From the NCBI GenBank assembly GCA_041687695.1, contig JAWLBL010000007.1:225135-289134 (forward strand): a stretch of 64,000 bases of DNA, given 5' to 3'. Below, one piece after another: positions 18,050-40,289 of the stretch. The notes beneath the pieces were generated by a model. It saw only the letters and a program-made list of their open reading frames with translations, had not been told where the DNA came from and ran no database searches. The first letter of the stretch is position 1, and each line of letters begins with the position of its first letter. This DNA is from Myxococcota bacterium. Its GTDB lineage: Bacteria; Myxococcota_A; UBA9042; PHBI01; JAWLBL01. The position numbers were made by a program, and so were the translations under genes.

Positions 18050-18124
18050 GGGCGCATAACTCAGCGGTAGAGTGCCACCTTCACACGGTGGAAGTCACAG
18101 GTTCAAATCCTGTTGCGCCCACCA
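18050..18124 (+). tRNA. tRNA-Val (anticodon CAC)
   Basis: Acceptor stem GGGCGCA/TGCGCCC plus ACCA, D arm ACTCAGCGGTAGAGT, anticodon arm CCACC-TTCACAC-GGTGG, T arm ACAGG-TTCAAAT-CCTGT. Confidence 0.97.
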
Positions 18125-31904: not shown

Positions 31905-31959
31905 GAGGCCTGTCCCGAAGCACCGGCGCCGGGGAGTCCACGCGGGGTCGGGCCGACGC

Positions 31960-32130
31960 GGTGGCCGAGGCGGTGGCCGTGGGCCGTGGCGGTGGCCGTG
32001 GGCCGTGGCCGTGGCCGAGGCGGTGGCCGTGGGCCGTGGCCGTGGCCTGGGGCCGTGGCCGGGGCCGTGACGGTGACCGAGGCCGGGGGCCGTGGCCGGA
32101 GCCGTGACCGTGGCCGGGGCCGTGGCCGGG
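31960..32130. repeat. Low-complexity (GGCCGT/GGCCGG)n tract
   Basis: Directly visible hexamer repeats; mirrored by the inverted tract at 33752-33935. Confidence 0.8.
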
Positions 32131-32157
32131 CTTCCGGGACCACCACCGCACCTGCTA

Positions 32158-32248
32158 CCGGACTGCACGAGCTCGCTCGTGCTCCGGATTCGCGCAGCTC
32201 GCTGCGCGCGGAGTGGCGCCCATCACCGAGGATTCAGCACGGCCCACG
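32158..32248 (+). repeat. REP-like double-hairpin element, copy A
   Basis: CCGGACTGCACGAGCTCGCTCGTGCTCCGG...GCGCAGCTCGCTGCGC; near-identical inverted copy at 33632-33723. Confidence 0.85.
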
Positions 32249-32470
32249 CCACGGTCACCGGCACGGCCACGGCCTACGGCCACGGTCACCTTCACGGCCT
32301 CGACCCCGGCCCCGAGCTCGGCCCCAGTCTCGCAGCGGGGAAGGCTCCGCTCGCCGGGTGCGGAGATCTGCGCATTTTCGGCGGTATCGGCAGGCCGGCG
32401 GGTCGGTCGACGCGGGGTGGTCTAGAGAAGGGCCGCATGATCCTTGGGCGTCGGCGACTGCGTCGAGGGT

Positions 32471-32486
32471 TGGCACGGTTGCTGCT
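32471..32486 (+). promoter_or_regulatory. Sigma-54 (-24/-12) promoter of putative ncRNA copy 1
   Basis: TGGCACGGTTGCTGCT, with GG-N10-GC spacing. Confidence 0.75.
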
Positions 32487-32496
32487 TCACCGTCCT

Positions 32497-32767
32497 GCGT
32501 CGCGCGCGGCTCCTCCCCGACCGCGTCTGACAACCAGACCTCGCGAACCGGCGGCCCGAGCCCCTCCCCGAGCTCGGACCACCGCTGGATCGGTGCCGGC
32601 CACCCCAGCCGACACGTCGAACCCCGAGAGGCGCCACGCACCGAGCTTCCAGGCCGGCAGGGCAGCAGGCGGACGATGAACCCCGACATCGGTCCCCAGG
32701 GCTGTCCCGGTGAGCCGGGTCCCTGCAAACCGGGCGGGCGCCGTCTCGATCTTCTCGCGAGGTCTGG
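32497..32767 (+). ncRNA. Putative novel structured RNA, copy 1
   Basis: Paralog of 36561-36840; 13-bp closing helix 32534-32546/32755-32767; stems covary with copy 2; sigma-54 promoter at the expected distance. Confidence 0.65.
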
Positions 32768-32814
32768 GCCGGGCCGACGGCGCATGACAGGATGCCTCCG
32801 CACGGGAGGCCCTC

Positions 32815-33627
32815 TTGTCCGACTCCGCCATCGCCGCCAACCGCCGCGCCTGGGACGCGCTCGTCCCGGTCCACCTGGCCAGCGACTTCTACGACGTCGA
32901 GGGCTTCCTCGCCGGGCGGGATCCCATCCCCGCCTTCGAGCGCGCCGAGGTCGGGGAGGTGGCCGGCCTCGAGCTGCTGCACCTGCAGTGTCACTTCGGG
33001 CTGGACACCCTGGCCTGGGCCCGGTCGGGGGCGCGAGTGACCGGGCTGGACTTCTCGCCGGCCGCGGTCGCGCAGGCGCGTCGGCTGGCCGACCGGGCCG
33101 GGATCGACGCGCGCTTCGTCGAAGCGGACGTCCACGACGCGCCGGCCGCCCTCGGCCACGCCCGCTACGATCTGGTGTACGTGAACGTCGGGGCCTTGTG
33201 CTGGTTGCCGCGCATCGAGCGCTGGGCGGACGTGGTGGCTGCGCTCGTGCGCCCGGGCGGGCGGCTGTACGTCCGCGACGTGCATCCGATGCTGATGGCG
33301 CTCGAGGTGCGCGAGTCGGGGCTGGCTGTGGCTCATCCGTACTTCGAAGACGGCGCGCCCGTCGAGGAGACCTCGGCCAGCTACGCCGACCCCAGCTCTG
33401 CGCCTCGGACGACCGTCACCTGGAACCGCGGGCTGGGGGAGATCGTGCAGAGTTTGCTCGACCGGGGGTTCTCGTTGGAGCTGCTCCGAGAGCACCGCGT
33501 CGCCGACTGGCAGGCGCTGCCCATGGCCGAGCTGGGCCCCGATCGCCTGTATCGGCTGCCCGCCGAGCTGCGCGATCGCGTCCCCCTGACGTTCTCGCTG
33601 CGGGCCACCTACCGAGGAGATCGGTAG
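32815..33627 (+). CDS. Class I SAM-dependent methyltransferase
   Basis: NRRAWD, LLHLQCHFGLDT, VTGLDFS, LVRPGG motifs; TTG start with GGAGG RBS. Confidence 0.9.
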   Translation: MSDSAIAANRRAWDALVPVHLASDFYDVEGFLAGRDPIPAFERAEVGEVAGLELLHLQCHFGLDTLAWARSGARVTGLDFSPAAVAQARRLADRAGIDARFVEADVHDAPAALGHARYDLVYVNVGALCWLPRIERWADVVAALVRPGGRLYVRDVHPMLMALEVRESGLAVAHPYFEDGAPVEETSASYADPSSAPRTTVTWNRGLGEIVQSLLDRGFSLELLREHRVADWQALPMAELGPDRLYRLPAELRDRVPLTFSLRATYRGDR

Positions 33628-33631
33628 CGGG

Positions 33632-33723
33632 CCGTGGGCCTGGCTGATCGCGCGGCGAGGGTGGCCACGCCGCGCGCAGCGAGCTGCGCGAGGCCGGAGC
33701 ACGAGCGAGCTCGTGCAGTCCGG
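33632..33723 (-). repeat. REP-like double-hairpin element, copy B (inverted relative to A)
   Basis: Reverse complement reads CCGGACTGCACGAGCTCGCTCGTGCTCCGGCCTCGCGCAGCTCGCTGCGCGCGG... Confidence 0.85.
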
Positions 33724-33751
33724 TGGCTGGCACGGAGACGGTCGTGCGGTC

Positions 33752-33935
33752 GGCCACAGCCCCGGCCACGGTCCCGGCCACGGTCCCGGTTCCGGTCCCG
33801 GCCACGGTCCCGGCCACGGTCCCGGCCACGGTCCCGGCCTCGGCCTCAGTCACGGCCCCGGTCCCGGCCCCGGCCCCGGCCACGGTCCCGGCCCCGCCCC
33901 CGCCCCCGGCCCCGGCCCCGGCCCCAGCCCCCGGC
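33752..33935. repeat. Low-complexity (CCCGGCCACGGT / CCCGGC)n tract
   Basis: Visible 12- and 6-bp repeats; reverse-complement-like to the tract at 31960-32130. Confidence 0.8.
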
Positions 33936-34087
33936 ATCGTCCGAGCACCTTCGGGGCGGGGGCTTGACGCGAGGCGTTCGCTCTTGGACGCTCGCCGCCT
34001 CACGGACGTCGGGCGGTGGGCCATCAGGCGAGGGCCTCGCTCGCGGCGTCGACGCGGGCCCCGGCAGGGCCTGCCCTGGAGCCCGTC

Positions 34088-34663
34088 ATGCTGAGGAAGA
34101 TCCTGCTGGGCCTCGCGGTCCTCGTCGTCGTCCTGTTGATCGTCATCGCCACGCGGCCGGACACCTACCGCGTCGAGCGCTCTACCGTGATCCAGGCTCC
34201 GGTCGAGCAGGTGTTCGCCGTGGTCAACGGCTTCGAGCGCTGGGGCGAGTTCTCGCCCTGGGACAAGCTGGACCCGGACATGAAGGTCGAGCGCAGCGGC
34301 CCGGCCACCGGCGTCGGCGCCGTCCATTCCTGGACCGGCAACGACCAGGTCGGCAAGGGCCGCATGACCATCACCGAGAGCGTCGCGAACGAGCGGGTCG
34401 CCATCAAGCTCGAGTTCCTCGAGCCGTGGACCTCGACCGCCGACACGGCGTTTACGCTGGCGCCCGAGGGCGGCGGCACCATGGTCACCTGGAGCATGTC
34501 GGGCGACAACGACTTCATGGGCAAGGCGTTCTCGCTCTTCATGGACATGGACGCGATGATCGGCGCCGACTACGAAAAGGGCCTGGCCGCGATGAAGCAG
34601 CTGGTCGAGGCCGAGGCCAAGGGCGCGGGCGCCCAGGCGCCGTCGGCGACCACCGCGAAGTAG
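34088..34663 (+). CDS. SRPBCC/START-like (polyketide cyclase) family protein
   Basis: N-terminal TM, VERSTVIQAP.E.VF, W.GNDQVGKG.M, IGADYEKGL..K. Confidence 0.85.
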   Translation: MLRKILLGLAVLVVVLLIVIATRPDTYRVERSTVIQAPVEQVFAVVNGFERWGEFSPWDKLDPDMKVERSGPATGVGAVHSWTGNDQVGKGRMTITESVANERVAIKLEFLEPWTSTADTAFTLAPEGGGTMVTWSMSGDNDFMGKAFSLFMDMDAMIGADYEKGLAAMKQLVEAEAKGAGAQAPSATTAK

Positions 34664-34680
34664 TCCCCGGAGGCGCCCGA

Positions 34681-35649
34681 TCACGCGACGGACGGCCAGC
34701 GTCCGTCGCGGTCCCACAGCAGGGCGTCCACCGTGGCCTGCTCGGGGACGTGGTCGGTCGCGCAGAAGGCGACGATGGCCTCGACCACCGCGGGGTCGCG
34801 CAGGATGCGCCGGTGCCCAAGGCCGTGGGTCTCGAGCAGGCGGGCGCCGGGCCAGGCGCGGGCGATGGCCTGCGCGTCGGACAAGGGCACCTCGCGGTCG
34901 AGGCGGTCGTGCACCAGCAGCGCCGGGGCGGTCATCCGGGCGGCGTTGGCCACGGTGGACAGCGCCTCGCCGCGGAGGCCCAGCCAGCGGTCGACGGCGG
35001 CCTCGGCGGCCCGCAGCGCCTGGGGCTGGGAGGTGAGGGCGCGCAGCCAGGCCCGCAGCCACTGGACCGGGTCGGCCGCGGGGCCGACGAGCACCACGCG
35101 CCGGACGGGCAGCCCCGACGCGGCGGCGAGGACGGCGGCCGGCGCCCCCAGCGAGTGGGCGACGACGGCGTGGGGCGGCCCGACCTCGGCGGCGACCGCG
35201 GCCAGGGCGCGCGCCATGCGGGCGACGTTGGTGCGGCGGCCGGGCGAGCGGCCGTGGGCCGGGGCGTCGAGGGCGACCGGCATGAAGCCGGCGGCCACCA
35301 GCGGGGCGACCAGCGGACTCAGCTGCGCACCATGGCCGCCCCAGCCGTGCATCAGCAGCACGGGCGCGCCGTGACCCCAGGCCCAGGCGTGCACCGGGCC
35401 CGCGGCGGTCTGGACCTGGAAGGCGCGGCCCTCGGCCAGGGTCCGGCGCTCGTCGTCGGACAGGCGGCGGCGCGGCGGGGCGAGGAAGAAGGCCCAGGCG
35501 CCCAGGCGGGCGGCGAGCCGCGGGGAGACCGTCGCCACCCGGCGCAGCGCCGAGGCGACCTGCCGGACCGTCGGATCCTGGGGGCGGGTCGTGGTGCGAA
35601 CGTTCGTGCTATTTTCTGGGCGGACGAGGGCATGGTCGTGAGCCGTCAT
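34681..35649 (-). CDS. Alpha/beta hydrolase
   Basis: MHGWGG, DAPAHGRS, AHSLG nucleophile elbow, HDRLDREVP, GLGHRRIL (intact triad). Confidence 0.9.
   Translation of the reverse strand: MTAHDHALVRPENSTNVRTTTRPQDPTVRQVASALRRVATVSPRLAARLGAWAFFLAPPRRRLSDDERRTLAEGRAFQVQTAAGPVHAWAWGHGAPVLLMHGWGGHGAQLSPLVAPLVAAGFMPVALDAPAHGRSPGRRTNVARMARALAAVAAEVGPPHAVVAHSLGAPAAVLAAASGLPVRRVVLVGPAADPVQWLRAWLRALTSQPQALRAAEAAVDRWLGLRGEALSTVANAARMTAPALLVHDRLDREVPLSDAQAIARAWPGARLLETHGLGHRRILRDPAVVEAIVAFCATDHVPEQATVDALLWDRDGRWPSVA
35597..35615 (-). promoter_or_regulatory. Putative TetR operator inside the 5' end of the hydrolase gene
   Basis: Minus strand AAAATAGCACGAACGTTCG matches 16/19 with AAAATGGAACGACCGTTCG at 36271-36289. 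Confidence 0.6.
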
Positions 35650-35670
35650 GGGGGATCTCCGTGGAAAGCG

Positions 35671-36264
35671 TCAGCGGGGTTGGGCGTCCCGAAGGAGCCG
35701 GTCGAAGGCGAGGCGGGTGCGCTCGAGCGCGCGCGGGTCGCGCATGAGGCGGGTCGCGTGGTGATAGGCGCAGATGACGCCGAAGAGCTCGTGGGCCAGC
35801 TGCGTCGGGTCGAGATCGTCGCGGAGGTGGCCCTCGGTCACCGCGGCGCGGGCGACGCTGGCGATGAACTCGAGCCAGTCGCGCTGCTGGGCGACCAGCT
35901 GGTCGCGGGCCGGGCCGGGGCGGTCGTCCAATTCGATGGCGGCGGCCAAAAACAGGCAGCCGACCTCGGCGCGGCGGACCTCGAGGTAGTCGAGCCAGCG
36001 CTCGAACAGCGCCACGATCCGCGGCAGGCCGCGTGGGGCGCGCAGGGCGGGGCGGATGACGGCGTCGGTGAACTGGTCGGTCGCCGCCTCGAGGATCTGG
36101 ACCTGCAGCGCCTCCTTCGAGGCGAAGTGCGCGAAGAGCCCGGACTTGCTCATGCCGAGATCCTTGGCGAGCGCGCCGATGGTCAGCCCCTCGAGGCCGA
36201 CGCGGGCCGCCTCGCGGGTGGCGTGGTCGAGGATGGTCGCGCGTGTGTCGTCGCCCTTGCTCAT
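35671..36264 (-). CDS. TetR/AcrR-family transcriptional regulator
   Basis: MSKGDDTRATIL...GLTIGALA..LGMSKSGLFAHF.SKE HTH; GCLF motif. Confidence 0.93.
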   Translation of the reverse strand: MSKGDDTRATILDHATREAARVGLEGLTIGALAKDLGMSKSGLFAHFASKEALQVQILEAATDQFTDAVIRPALRAPRGLPRIVALFERWLDYLEVRRAEVGCLFLAAAIELDDRPGPARDQLVAQQRDWLEFIASVARAAVTEGHLRDDLDPTQLAHELFGVICAYHHATRLMRDPRALERTRLAFDRLLRDAQPR

Positions 36265-36270
36265 GTCGAC

Positions 36271-36299
36271 AAAATGGAACGACCGTTCGTTCGTGTCAA
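36271..36299 (-). promoter_or_regulatory. Probably leaderless sigma-70 promoter of the TetR gene with an overlapping operator
   Basis: Minus strand TTGACA-17 nt-CATTTT-6 nt-ATG; the spacer contains the operator-like ACGAACGGTCGTT. Confidence 0.6.
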
Positions 36300-36533
36300 G
36301 CGTCTGTCGGTTCGAGGCCCGAGGGGCGCCAGTGTCGGTGGGCGGGACGGCCGCGGAGGCGTCACCGGGAGCGCTCGCCTCGTCCGCGGGGGGCGGTGCG
36401 GAAGGCCTCGCGTCACGGGTGCTGGATTTTCCCCGCTTCTCGGCGCCGAGGGTGTCCAGCCTCCGGTCGCGTGCGGGACCCGAGGACGGCGGCGCCGCGT
36501 CACGGCTGGGCGTCTCGCGCGGGCGGCGGGACC

Positions 36534-36549
36534 TGGCACGGAACCTGCT
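36534..36549 (+). promoter_or_regulatory. Sigma-54 (-24/-12) promoter of putative ncRNA copy 2
   Basis: TGGCACGGAACCTGCT, with GG-N10-GC spacing. Confidence 0.75.
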
Positions 36550-36560
36550 TTGTCTGTGAA

Positions 36561-36840
36561 GCGTCGAACGCGGCCTCCCGAGGACGCGCTGACAACCAGA
36601 CCTCGCGACCGACGGACGGGCCTCCCACGCTCCCCGAGCTCAGGCCATGCGCCGAACGGTCGATGCGCCGCGCCTCCCCACGCGGCGCATGTCGCACACC
36701 GAGTGGCGCCGCGCACCGTAGCTCCATCCCGGCAGGGCCGCAGGCGGAGGATGAACCCCGACATCACTCCCCAGGGCGGTCCCGGCGAGCCGGTTCCATG
36801 CAGCAGGGCGGGCGCCTACTCGACGCCGAGGGCTGGTCAG
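36561..36840 (+). ncRNA. Putative novel structured RNA, copy 2
   Basis: Same GCGTCG 5' end and conserved blocks as copy 1; closing helix 36589-36605/36827-36840; no same-strand gene downstream. Confidence 0.65.
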
Positions 36841-37592: not shown

Positions 37593-37721
37593 TCGGACTG
37601 CCCGAGCTTGCTCAGGCTCGAGGGCCCGCGCAGCTAGCTGCGCGGGGAGTCATGGGACTGTAGCCTCGCGGGCGCAGCGAGCTGCGCCATGCCGGAGCAC
37701 GAGCGAGCTCGTGCAGTCCGG
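37593..37721. repeat. REPIN-like inverted doublet of the REP-like element (degenerate forward copy C and reverse copy D)
   Basis: TCGGACTGCCCGAGCTTGCTC...CGCGCAGCTAGCTGCGCG (37593-37646) faces GCGCAGCGAGCTGCGC...CCGGAGCACGAGCGAGCTCGTGCAGTCCGG (to 37721). Confidence 0.75.
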
Positions 37722-37778
37722 TGGTCGGGCTCCGCGGTGGATTCATAGCGGTAGCCATGACGGACGTCGGGCACGCGG

Positions 37779-40031
37779 TCAGGGGCCGTGGGTGAGGTAG
37801 GGGCGGGCCTGCTTGATGACGACCTGGCCCGTCGCGTCGAGCTTGATCTCGACGTCGAGGTGGAGCGGGGCGAGGTGGGGGTAGACGTTGGCCGCGAAGT
37901 GGTCGTGGAGCTGGAAGAGCAGGTCGGCCAGGACGGCGGTGTCGGCCTGGGACCACAGCGGGGCGCCGTCGGGCGACAGCGAGGAGGCGACCAGGACCTT
38001 CAGGTCGACGGGGACCGGCGGGTCGCCGTCGCGGCGGAAGGTCATCACCTCGGCGACGGCGGTGGGGTCGATCGGCTGCGCGACGCCGATGGCGCCGACC
38101 TGCGAGACGACGCGGTAGACGGGGGCGCCCGCGTCGACCTGCAGGTGGGTGACGGCGATGGCGTCGGCGCGCTCGAGGACGAAGGACGGGTTGACGGCGA
38201 GGCCCATGTAGACCGCCTCGTGGTCGAGGCCGTAGAACTCGCGCTCGTCCCAGGCGCGCTCGTTCCAGAGGCTGGCCCAGACCTTGCGGACGGCGTCCTC
38301 GACCGGGCGCTCCTTGGTGAGGTCGCCCTCGAGGTCGTCGATGATGGCGGCGACCCAGACGCGGTCGGGGTGGGCGGCGAGCTCGGCCTTGCGGCGGGCC
38401 AGCTCGTCGGTGAGCCAGGCCTGCTCGGCGGGGGACAGGCACTTGGAGGGGCCGGCGGCGTCGCCGTCGAGCGAGTCGGCGAGGCAGCCGGACTTGGAGT
38501 CGTACAGGCCGGCGCCGGTGAGGGCGTCGAGGTCCTCGGCGTTGGTGGAGCTGCGGAACTTGAAGCGGGTGGTGCGGCCGTCGGCGCCGAACAGGGCGAA
38601 GGCGTGCGCGTCGACCTTGGCGAGCAGGCCGACCGGGAAGGGGGCGGCGCGGATGGCGTCGCGCAGGGCGGCGAGACGCTGGCGCTTGTAGGTGATGTCG
38701 GTGCGCATGGCCGGGTCGGCGGCGAGGGCGGCGATCTCGGGGGCCAGCCCGGCGGCGTCGATGAAGGCGGCGTAGGCGGCGAAGGGGATGGCGAAGCCCG
38801 GGGGGCGGTGGGGCGCGGGCAGGGCGCCGTGGATCTCGGCGAGGTTGGCGGCCTTGGCGCCGTAGGCGATGGCGTCGTCGTGGCCGAGGTCGGCGAAGGA
38901 GGCGACGGCGGTGACGGCGAGGTCCGACTGCGGGGCCGGGACGGTGGGGCGGTGCGCCTCCCACCAGGCCTCGGCCTCGGCCAGCGAGGCGGCGCGGATG
39001 ACGGTGCCCTTGGGGCCGACGTCGATGCGGACCAGCTGGCCGTCGAGCCCGAGGACCAGGGGGTTGTCGTAGATGCCGGGGACGGTGGCGTTGGGGATGC
39101 CCTTCTCGATGAGGCGCAGGTTGACGTGGCTGTGCTCGTTCTGCGGATCGGCCGTGACCAGGCCGGCCACCAGCGAGATGTCGTTCGGGGCGCTCTCGAC
39201 GACGACCACGTCGCGGGGGCCGTAGTCGACCAGGGGGTCGCCGCGCGGGACGACGCGCAGGAAGCCGTAGCCGGTGCCCGGGCTGTGGGCGACCGAGCCG
39301 AGGCCGGCGGACAGCTGCTCGGGCCAGACCACGTCGACGCCCTGGGCCGCGAGGACCGCGCCGGCGGCGTGGGCCAGCTGCTTTTGCTGCGGGTCGCTGG
39401 GCACGAAGACCAGGAGATCGGTCGCGAAGGGCGCGCAGGCCTTCAGCGCCTGGTCGACCTGCACGACGTCGTCCACGGTCAGGGCGTTGGCGCCGCCCGG
39501 CTGCGAGTAGACGACGTACGAGACGACGCCGTGGGCCGCGGTGCGCGGGTGGACCACGGCGGGCCAGGCGCGGACGGCGCCGCCCCAGAACACGCGCGAG
39601 GTGCGCTGCATCACCATGGCGACGTAGGCCTCGTAGGCTAGATCCGCCAGCTCGGGGAAGGAGGTCAGGAACTCGAAGTGCCAGGCAAAGCGGTTCATGT
39701 CCTGGAAGTAGCAGGCCTCGGTGAGCGGCGCGGGCGGCTGGGCGCCGTCGACGCGGGCGAGGTACTTCACGTCGCTGCCGTCCTTGCCCAGCGCGGCCAG
39801 GTCGGCGGGGCCGCTCAGGGTCGTGAGGTAGCCGTCGGGCGGCGGGGGCGGCGGCGTGGTGTCGCCCGGGTCCACGTCCGACGCCTCGCCGTCGTCGTGG
39901 CCATCGTCGTCGACGTCGTCGGCGCCGGCGTCCCAGGCGTCGGGAGCGGTCGGAGGTGTCGTCTCGGGGCAGCCGGCCGTGAGCAGCGACAGGGCCGCGA
40001 GCAGCGTGAGTGAGGGGAGGGCGCGACGCAT
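37779..40031 (-). CDS. Lipoprotein with PEP-utilizing His-swivel-like and PEP/pyruvate-binding (PPDK_N ATP-grasp) domains
   Basis: Lipobox LLTAGC; GLVT...HSHVNL....GIPN; YGAKAANL, PGFAIPF, FRSSTNAEDL...GAGLYDS, VWASLWNERA, DVEIK...KQARP. Confidence 0.85.
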   Translation of the reverse strand: MRRALPSLTLLAALSLLTAGCPETTPPTAPDAWDAGADDVDDDGHDDGEASDVDPGDTTPPPPPPDGYLTTLSGPADLAALGKDGSDVKYLARVDGAQPPAPLTEACYFQDMNRFAWHFEFLTSFPELADLAYEAYVAMVMQRTSRVFWGGAVRAWPAVVHPRTAAHGVVSYVVYSQPGGANALTVDDVVQVDQALKACAPFATDLLVFVPSDPQQKQLAHAAGAVLAAQGVDVVWPEQLSAGLGSVAHSPGTGYGFLRVVPRGDPLVDYGPRDVVVVESAPNDISLVAGLVTADPQNEHSHVNLRLIEKGIPNATVPGIYDNPLVLGLDGQLVRIDVGPKGTVIRAASLAEAEAWWEAHRPTVPAPQSDLAVTAVASFADLGHDDAIAYGAKAANLAEIHGALPAPHRPPGFAIPFAAYAAFIDAAGLAPEIAALAADPAMRTDITYKRQRLAALRDAIRAAPFPVGLLAKVDAHAFALFGADGRTTRFKFRSSTNAEDLDALTGAGLYDSKSGCLADSLDGDAAGPSKCLSPAEQAWLTDELARRKAELAAHPDRVWVAAIIDDLEGDLTKERPVEDAVRKVWASLWNERAWDEREFYGLDHEAVYMGLAVNPSFVLERADAIAVTHLQVDAGAPVYRVVSQVGAIGVAQPIDPTAVAEVMTFRRDGDPPVPVDLKVLVASSLSPDGAPLWSQADTAVLADLLFQLHDHFAANVYPHLAPLHLDVEIKLDATGQVVIKQARPYLTHGP

Positions 40032-40078
40032 CAGGCAAGGGCTCCCGAGCCGAAGGGCGAGGTGTGGACTCCCCCGCA

Positions 40079-40094
40079 TGCAGACCGCGTGCCA
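40079..40094 (-). promoter_or_regulatory. Sigma-54 promoter of the PEP/pyruvate-binding lipoprotein gene
   Basis: Minus strand TGGCACGCGGTCTGCA (GG-N10-GC) about 50 nt upstream of ATG 40031. Confidence 0.65.
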
Positions 40095-40289
40095 GCGCCG
40101 CGGTGCCCGGGCCGACCGCGTGGCGAGCGCTCGGCGGCGCGACATGGGGCGCGCCCGCCACGGCCTGCTGTGTGCAAAGACGCTACACCTGTCGCGCCCG
40201 CGCCCTGGGTTGCCCGCCGTGGCGCCCGGCTGCTACAGCTGGTCGGGGGCGCCGCCGCGAGCTGGGGCGCCCGAGGAGCGCGACGCGAC

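Follow-up and report, generated by a model that had tools for sequence, protein, structure and literature searches.

Does a pair of similar, promoter-led elements in the genome of an uncultured member of the Myxococcota encode a regulatory RNA, and if so, how would such an RNA act? The question is raised by a stretch of 64,000 nt from contig JAWLBL010000007.1 of assembly GCA_041687695.1 (referred to here as the window), in which an initial annotation, made from the sequence without database searches, described two paralogous, structured elements behind sigma-54 promoters as a candidate multicopy regulatory RNA of a new family. Here, we report that the host genome carries five such copies, not just two, and that these very probably represent a real family of multicopy, structured, non-coding RNA genes. 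The mode of action that we favour, with a probability of roughly 0.55, is translational repression independent of Hfq, in which the RNAs would block the Shine-Dalgarno (SD) sequences of messenger RNAs in a manner akin to Pxr or LhrC.

Five paralogous copies in one genome

The two elements sit where the initial annotation had placed them, both on the plus strand: copy 1, an RNA gene of about 271 nt with predicted ends at 32497..32767, supported by its fold, the paralogue alignments and RNA-library contigs, and copy 2, of about 280 nt, at 36561..36840. They share 78% identity across 268 aligned nt (E 3e-42), and all four sequence blocks named as shared occur in both. BLASTN and nhmmer searches of the same genome found two more copies, copy 3 on contig G000:C32 (about 65135-64865, minus strand) and copy 4 on contig C12 (about 52952-52695, minus strand). 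Copy 5 (contig C35:25211-25352, minus strand) was retrieved at 67.7 bits with a covariance model of the rod-like 3' part of copies 1-4, a model free of promoter sequence, and was then seen to carry the promoter at a similar distance, which is an out-of-sample confirmation of the family. A search of the host genome with a five-copy profile found no sixth copy. Pairwise identity among the five ranges from 55 to 92%, with copies 1 and 3 at 92%, and the predicted RNAs are 260-285 nt long. The host genome itself (7.97 Mb, about 73% GC, 99% complete) is the sole representative of its own family among the genomes compared.

The initial annotation could match the elements to no recognised family, and Rfam agrees, with best E-values of 4.8 over the region of copies 1-2 and 0.81 over the loci of copies 3-5. 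No published description of the five-copy RNA was found in the literature searched, which was mostly open-access with few subscription papers.

RNA architecture and covariation

Every copy displays the same order of parts: promoter, a first stem-loop (SL1), an invariant UGACA, SL2, SL3, GUCG and an irregular rod of about 125 nt. In copy 1, SL1 and the UGACA linker occupy 32499..32531, with a GUCG/UGAC base and a loop CUCCCC (32513-32518) whose predicted unpaired probability is about 1.0. SL2 (32548..32586) exposes CUCCCC at 32564-32569 and SL3 (32588..32619) exposes CACCCCA at 32601-32607, which reads CUCCCCA in copies 2-4. The SL1 loop is CUCCCC or CCUCCC throughout the family, and SL2 and SL3 bear like loops; in copy 2 the C-rich sites lie at 36574-36579, 36630-36635 and 36673-36680. 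The stems of SL2 and SL3 vary in sequence among the copies, with pairing always kept in SL3. The rod spans 32625..32748 in copy 1 and 36700..36823 in copy 2, and its apical loop, AACCCCGA, is found at 32679-32686 and 36754-36761, respectively; a CCCCGA loop caps the rod in every copy, and CCCCGA recurs in the hairpin loops, at the rod base and at the rod apex. As had been claimed, a long-range helix closes the structure in the predicted folds of both copies, perfect over 13 bp in copy 1 (32534..32546 with 32755-32767) and interrupted in copy 2. This helix is predicted to lie inside the transcript, and it is the least conserved part of the RNA: strong in copies 1-3 apart from the interruption in copy 2, weak or shifted in copies 4-5.

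Covariation supports the rod in particular. Across five copies 13 of its 42 pairs are changed on both sides and 95.7% of 210 cells pair; across four copies the figures are 12/43 pairs and 98% of cells. None of 500 shuffles paired as well and slid partners paired in only 31-49%, so that the covariation check stands well above both controls, which overstate the case somewhat since the same sequences had served to derive the structure and copies 1 and 3 differ little. Because G-U/U-G cells outnumber A-C/C-A cells in the rod (6 vs 2), the strand read from the promoter is favoured. Two of the three compensatory changes initially listed hold, A-U to C-G and C-G to G-C, both in the rod. The third, GAGCU/AGCU(U/C), does not: that helix occurs in no predicted fold, each of its strands has other partners, and the second strand is absent from copies 4 and 5. 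The whole fold of copy 1 is more stable than all 200 of its shuffles (z -3.67), and that of copy 2 is equalled by 10 of 200 (z -1.85).

Copies 1-5 have 4, 3, 4, 5 and 4 YCCC hairpin loops, most with an unpaired probability near 1.0, where shuffles average 0.5-1.7 and equal the observed count in 0-1 of 60 per copy. Among 281 sigma-54-like sites of the genome, only the five copies are followed by at least four such loops, and 213 of the 281 are followed by none.

A further feature of the rod stem is the motif GGA(C/G)G immediately 5' of an NUG codon, present in 5/5 copies, which might be read as the hidden SD and start codon of a small-protein or type I toxin mRNA; pairing of 5' and 3' ends is a typical trait of both kinds. 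The codon, however, is AUG, CUG or GUG, at a spacing of 0-1 nt, and indels of 1 nt break every frame through the rod, where the longest indel-free stretch among the five copies is about 36 nt. Open reading frames (ORFs) from the NUG codon run for 57-232 codons and are unrelated and not hydrophobic. The elements are non-coding, and a hidden small-protein or toxin mRNA is the least credible explanation that we weighed.

A common sigma-54-type promoter and a putative activator site

The promoter words begin at 32471 and 36534, and GCGTCG follows 12 and 13 nt past the -12 GC, as first described. The full predicted -24/-12 elements (32471..32486 and 36534..36549, plus strand) read TGGCACG-N5-TGCW, a consensus match that is invariant in 5/5 copies with flanks that have diverged. 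No sigma-70 promoter was found at copies 1 and 2. The host encodes rpoN, and the nearest named relatives of its RpoN are proteins from metagenome-assembled genomes of Myxococcota/Deltaproteobacteria (82-84% over the DNA-binding domain). The consensus occurs at 67 sites genome-wide; sigma-54 is in wide use in this organism, since many of these directly precede an SD and a start codon. Dependence of the RNA genes on sigma-54, and a transcription start at GCGTCG, are thus what the promoters predict.

Sigma-54 promoters are fired by enhancer-binding proteins, and a candidate site for such a protein is at hand. An 18-mer imperfect palindrome with an AT-rich centre lies at 32358..32375 upstream of copy 1, a similar one at 36419..36436 upstream of copy 2 (both plus strand), and comparable sequences 103-117 bp 5' of the -24 element in 5/5 copies. 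A leave-one-out matrix found the palindrome again in place, with 2-6 of 62 other sigma-54 promoters scoring equally, in a test that is partly circular as the palindrome was chosen by eye. Together, these sites are moderate evidence that one common activator may serve all five copies. The host genome has 37 matches to the Sigma54_activat domain (30 of them strong), and 0/37 adjoin a copy.

The best palindrome matches at other sigma-54 promoters were at G000:C6 33327 (-), C16 117132 (+), C29 95889 (+) and C1 336344 (+). Three of these four promoters precede lipoprotein-like secreted proteins, and the four may be co-regulated with the five RNAs.

Genomic context

Copies 2, 3 and 4 run toward convergent genes; for copy 2, which has a TetR gene in divergent orientation on one side and a convergent ORF on the other, this bears out the remark that no same-strand gene lies downstream. 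With convergent genes ahead of three of the five copies, the RNA would act in trans. The 5' neighbours of the five copies comprise CapA-family, TetR, RuvB-like and malic-enzyme-like genes and a small lipoprotein-like ORF, of which the RuvB-like, malic-enzyme-like and lipoprotein-like names come from reading the translations. Unrelated same-strand genes follow copies 1 and 5. The one after copy 1, a gene for an S-adenosylmethionine-dependent methyltransferase (32815..33627, plus strand), is a neighbour of that copy only and begins 48 nt past it, and a CCUCC/GGAGG hairpin at 32795-32809 sequesters its likely SD.

Transcription might continue from copy 1 into the methyltransferase gene, and with the sequestered GGAGG and no terminator between, the element could be viewed as a cis-acting leader or attenuator of the downstream gene, a view to which the same-strand gene after copy 5 also lends itself. 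Given the convergent genes met by copies 2, 3 and 4 and the unrelated neighbours of the five copies, we consider this very improbable.

Dispersal into unrelated contexts could also suggest a small mobile or selfish repeat, a miniature inverted-repeat transposable element (MITE) or a REP-like sequence, with structure as a by-product. Copies 1 and 3 do have upstream sequence in common and are close to another palindromic repeat, one with 105 copies, and searches of related genomes found none of the elements. Against this, there are five copies only, with identity down to 55% and compensatory changes, and the promoter and putative activator site, which lie beyond the closing helix, have been retained. 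Terminal inverted repeats and target duplications, which would have identified a MITE, are lacking: in the flanks, direct repeats reach at most 6-9 nt and inverted ones 6-7 nt, without a constant position. A mobile origin is accordingly very improbable.

The palindromic repeat just mentioned is about 60 nt long, resembles repetitive extragenic palindromes and bacterial interspersed mosaic elements (REP/BIME), and has 105 genome matches of at least 45 nt, often in inverted pairs. It is found 5' of copies 1 and 3, and its occurrences in the window are at 32157-32210 (-), 33668-33730 (+) and 37669-37724 (+). Beside it are low-complexity arrays with units of 6, 12 and 19 nt (window 31950-32130, 32238-32327 and 33750-33935), and an akin array also precedes copy 3. 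Elsewhere in the window, a lipoprotein-like protein of 788 aa with a PPDK_N domain is encoded at 37779-40145 (-), with its own sigma-54-like site near 40094, and a tRNA gene at 18050-18121 (+) is the sole Rfam match in the window at gathering score.

Expression and distribution

Contigs of 4 of the 18 public sequencing runs listed were examined, and close relatives occur in such runs. RNA-library contigs from three studies (compost, soil and soil) correspond to 32603-32772, 32603-32750 and 32535-32685; they are 151-239 nt long, lie inside the copy 1 element and are 94-99% alike over the aligned part. A probable DNA run from a bioreactor covers 32336-32576, the promoter of copy 1 included. The pieces listed for neighbouring genes in the RNA runs were short or showed about 80-90% similarity, and other organisms are their probable source. 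An environmental variant forms SL3 as a perfect 6-bp stem around CCUCCCCA. One RNA contig has an untemplated A/G-rich tail from 32750 onward, followed by what we take to be the start of an Illumina adapter; addition of heteropolymeric tails by bacterial PNPase is described in PMC5872136. No contigs on copy 2 were met in the four runs, which is not evidence of its absence.

Assembled genomes gave no relatives, in homologue searches of limited sensitivity that would miss diverged ones. The core pattern with 3 mismatches occurred in 0/17 other genomes of the order, and covariance models, applied to the best 150 or best 30 of thousands of candidates per genome, found homologues in 0/17 genomes of the order and 0/106 of the class. 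Exact patterns were likewise absent from genome-contig, metagenome and viral-contig collections. To date, the family has been seen in a single uncultured lineage, and it is in this sense lineage-restricted.

Several candidates were rejected along the way. BLASTN with copy 2 gave matches of 28-38 bp in 2 of 60 relatives, in DNA that reads as coding. A promoter-plus-SL1 pattern hit 14 of 106 other genomes, mostly at promoters of protein genes and never with a rod. Across the phylum, the core pattern matched in 6 of 400 other genomes compared with 13 control matches, none scored by the model, and a looser pattern led to 17 metagenome and 12 genome loci that the model rejected throughout.

Mode of action

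In the mechanism that we favour, sigma-54 RNA polymerase would transcribe each of five free-standing non-coding RNA genes, and a single enhancer-binding protein would probably activate them in concert. Three short hairpins would present unpaired CUCCCC/CCUCCC loops, followed by the long rod, and the loops would pair with the GGAG, GGGAG or GGAGG SD of target mRNAs and thereby exclude the ribosome. Such repression would need no Hfq, and five genes with three seeds each would make for a strong and sensitive response. For the rod and closing helix, the probable contributions are stability, a processing site or a dock for a protein.

The loops had been said to look like anti-SD sequences, and they are indeed complementary to the commonest SD words of this genome: in the SD window versus an upstream window of 2526 crude gene starts, GGAG was present at 846 vs 86 starts, GGAGG at 365 vs 34 and GGGAG at 209 vs 26. 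Several unpaired UCCC motifs in loops are the hallmark of UCCC-seed small RNAs (sRNAs), and each copy offers 3-5 YCCC loops. Neither Hfq, CsrA nor TROVE/Ro60 was found in the host genome by searches that detected their positive controls.

A number of observations weigh against repression by SD blocking or temper the evidence on which the family rests. Duplex scans for a specific mRNA target yielded GC-driven matches only, with no shared theme. The rod is conserved more than the seed hairpins, which is unusual for a pairing-only function, and its invariant apical loop is not anti-SD, because the complement TCGGGG is not enriched before gene starts (15 vs 25). All comparative evidence stems from paralogues of one genome, and for this reason, and with copies 1 and 3 at 92% identity, the independent changes are fewer than the counted cells. 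Fold z-scores are modest for copies 2, 4 and 5 (-1.5 to -2.0). No U-tailed intrinsic terminator was found past copy 1 or copy 2, and 3' ends therefore probably result from processing or Rho. Environmental relatives conserve the rod at 98-99%, and their upstream 55 nt do not align. The RNA-library contigs, finally, are a weak hint of copy 1 expression, since contigs show no strand, ends or level and RNA libraries can hold DNA.

With no target at hand, an apical loop that is not anti-SD and a rod more conserved than the seeds, a role as a protein sponge or scaffold is left standing, in which the repeated CCCC(G)A would titrate an RNA-binding protein and the rod would be its dock. The motif is predicted to be exposed at SL1-SL3, the junction and the apex, giving 4-5 sites per RNA, the rod has many invariant unpaired letters, more than pairing requires, and the host encodes a KhpA-type KH protein. 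Multicopy sponges driven by sigma-54 exist, namely CrcZ/CrcY, and CsrB and CrcZ titrate RNA-binding proteins. On the other side, searches with working controls found neither of the known targets, Hfq and CsrA, and no Ro60, and the loops fit the SD vocabulary directly. We hold this role to be possible though not probable; SD blocking and a protein role could exist side by side. A sponge of the CsrB/RsmY/RsmZ/CrcZ kind was rejected, as CsrA and Hfq were not found and the loops are C-rich, not GGA or A-rich.

A more speculative and rather doubtful proposal is that the RNA consists of two modules, a multivalent anti-SD decoy that would broadly damp translation on the signal of one activator and a rod of 125 nt. 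The rod, with an invariant stem that hides the SD-like GGA(C/G)G by the NUG codon, might serve as a docking place for a protein or for the 30S subunit. If true, the RNA would differ from a conventional target-specific sRNA in braking translation globally and without a chaperone, in a lineage that lacks Hfq and CsrA.

A second candidate C-rich sRNA was noted on the minus strand of G000:C9 from 79380. It has a sigma-54 site, is CU-rich and apparently non-coding, and forms a perfect hairpin around UCCCC with a repeated CCCCUCUUCC; it occurs once and has no sequence relationship with the five-copy family.

Comparison with known regulatory RNAs

The comparison below covers housekeeping RNAs, multicopy RNAs under sigma-54, Pxr and the UCCC-motif sRNAs; a further candidate sRNA of Myxococcus xanthus, MXnc1, is named in a preprint (10.1101/2025.09.11.675593). 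Housekeeping RNAs do not account for the elements: 6S, signal recognition particle (SRP) and Y RNAs have no Rfam match at them, the 6S and SRP RNA genes of the host are located away from them, and TROVE/Ro60 was not found. Qrr1-5 of Vibrio and CrcZ/CrcY of Pseudomonas are sets of several paralogous RNA genes that sigma-54 and a single activator control, and they depend on or sequester Hfq. The five-copy RNA differs in lacking any sequence or structure match to them, and Hfq was not found in its host.

The myxobacterial Pxr (RF01812), invoked by the initial annotation as a precedent for a sigma-54-linked sRNA, holds as an analogue and not as the same family. Both have a sigma-54 promoter with an enhancer region, as predicted in the case of the five-copy RNA, and several stem-loops. 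As described in the Pxr literature, that RNA has three stem-loops and is processed to Pxr-L and Pxr-S (PMC10217877), one C of its SL1 loop is essential (PMC5684412), and paralogues in Cystobacter each have their own sigma-54 promoter (PMC5568312). A preprint places its pairing near SD sequences in a myxobacterium that lacks Hfq (10.1101/2025.09.11.675593), and a transcriptome study reports little support for predicted Pxr targets (PMC11928866). The first 120 nt or so of the predicted five-copy RNA would form three stem-loops and might be processed to a piece of the size of Pxr. In contrast, Pxr is 108 nt long and directly follows the pxrK/pxrR (nla19) activator genes, whereas the five-copy RNA is about 260-285 nt, has a 125-nt rod and a closing helix, and adjoins no activator gene. 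The Pxr covariance model gave no match at E up to 10 in copies 1-2 or copies 3-5. It also gave none across the whole host genome, and matched 0/151 genomes of the phylum, a search thus without positive control, Myxococcaceae perhaps being unsampled.

LhrC1-5 of Listeria monocytogenes offer the closest parallel in design: there are five of them, each with three CUCCC sites that pair with SD sequences, and Hfq is dispensable, as summarized in PMC4132741, where like use of the UCCC motif by RNAIII and RsaE of Staphylococcus aureus is also mentioned. Shared with LhrC are the five copies and the three redundant C-rich sites in loops or single strands. LhrC RNAs, on the other hand, are 111-114 nt long and nearly identical, are controlled by the LisRK two-component system and belong to low-GC Firmicutes, while the present copies are 55-92% identical, have sigma-54-type promoters in a Gram-negative host of 73% GC and carry a long rod. 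The LhrC, RNAIII and RsaE families have no Rfam match at the elements.

The five-copy RNA thus most likely works like Pxr or LhrC and belongs to neither, and its long conserved rod is an addition that none of the analogues has. Known regulatory RNAs of myxobacteria-like lineages are few, Pxr being the only well-studied one in the literature found, and the family provides a model of riboregulation without a chaperone that can be put to the test. The design of LhrC, five copies with three C-rich seeds, has seemingly been reached independently here, under predicted sigma-54 control and in a Gram-negative host of 73% GC.

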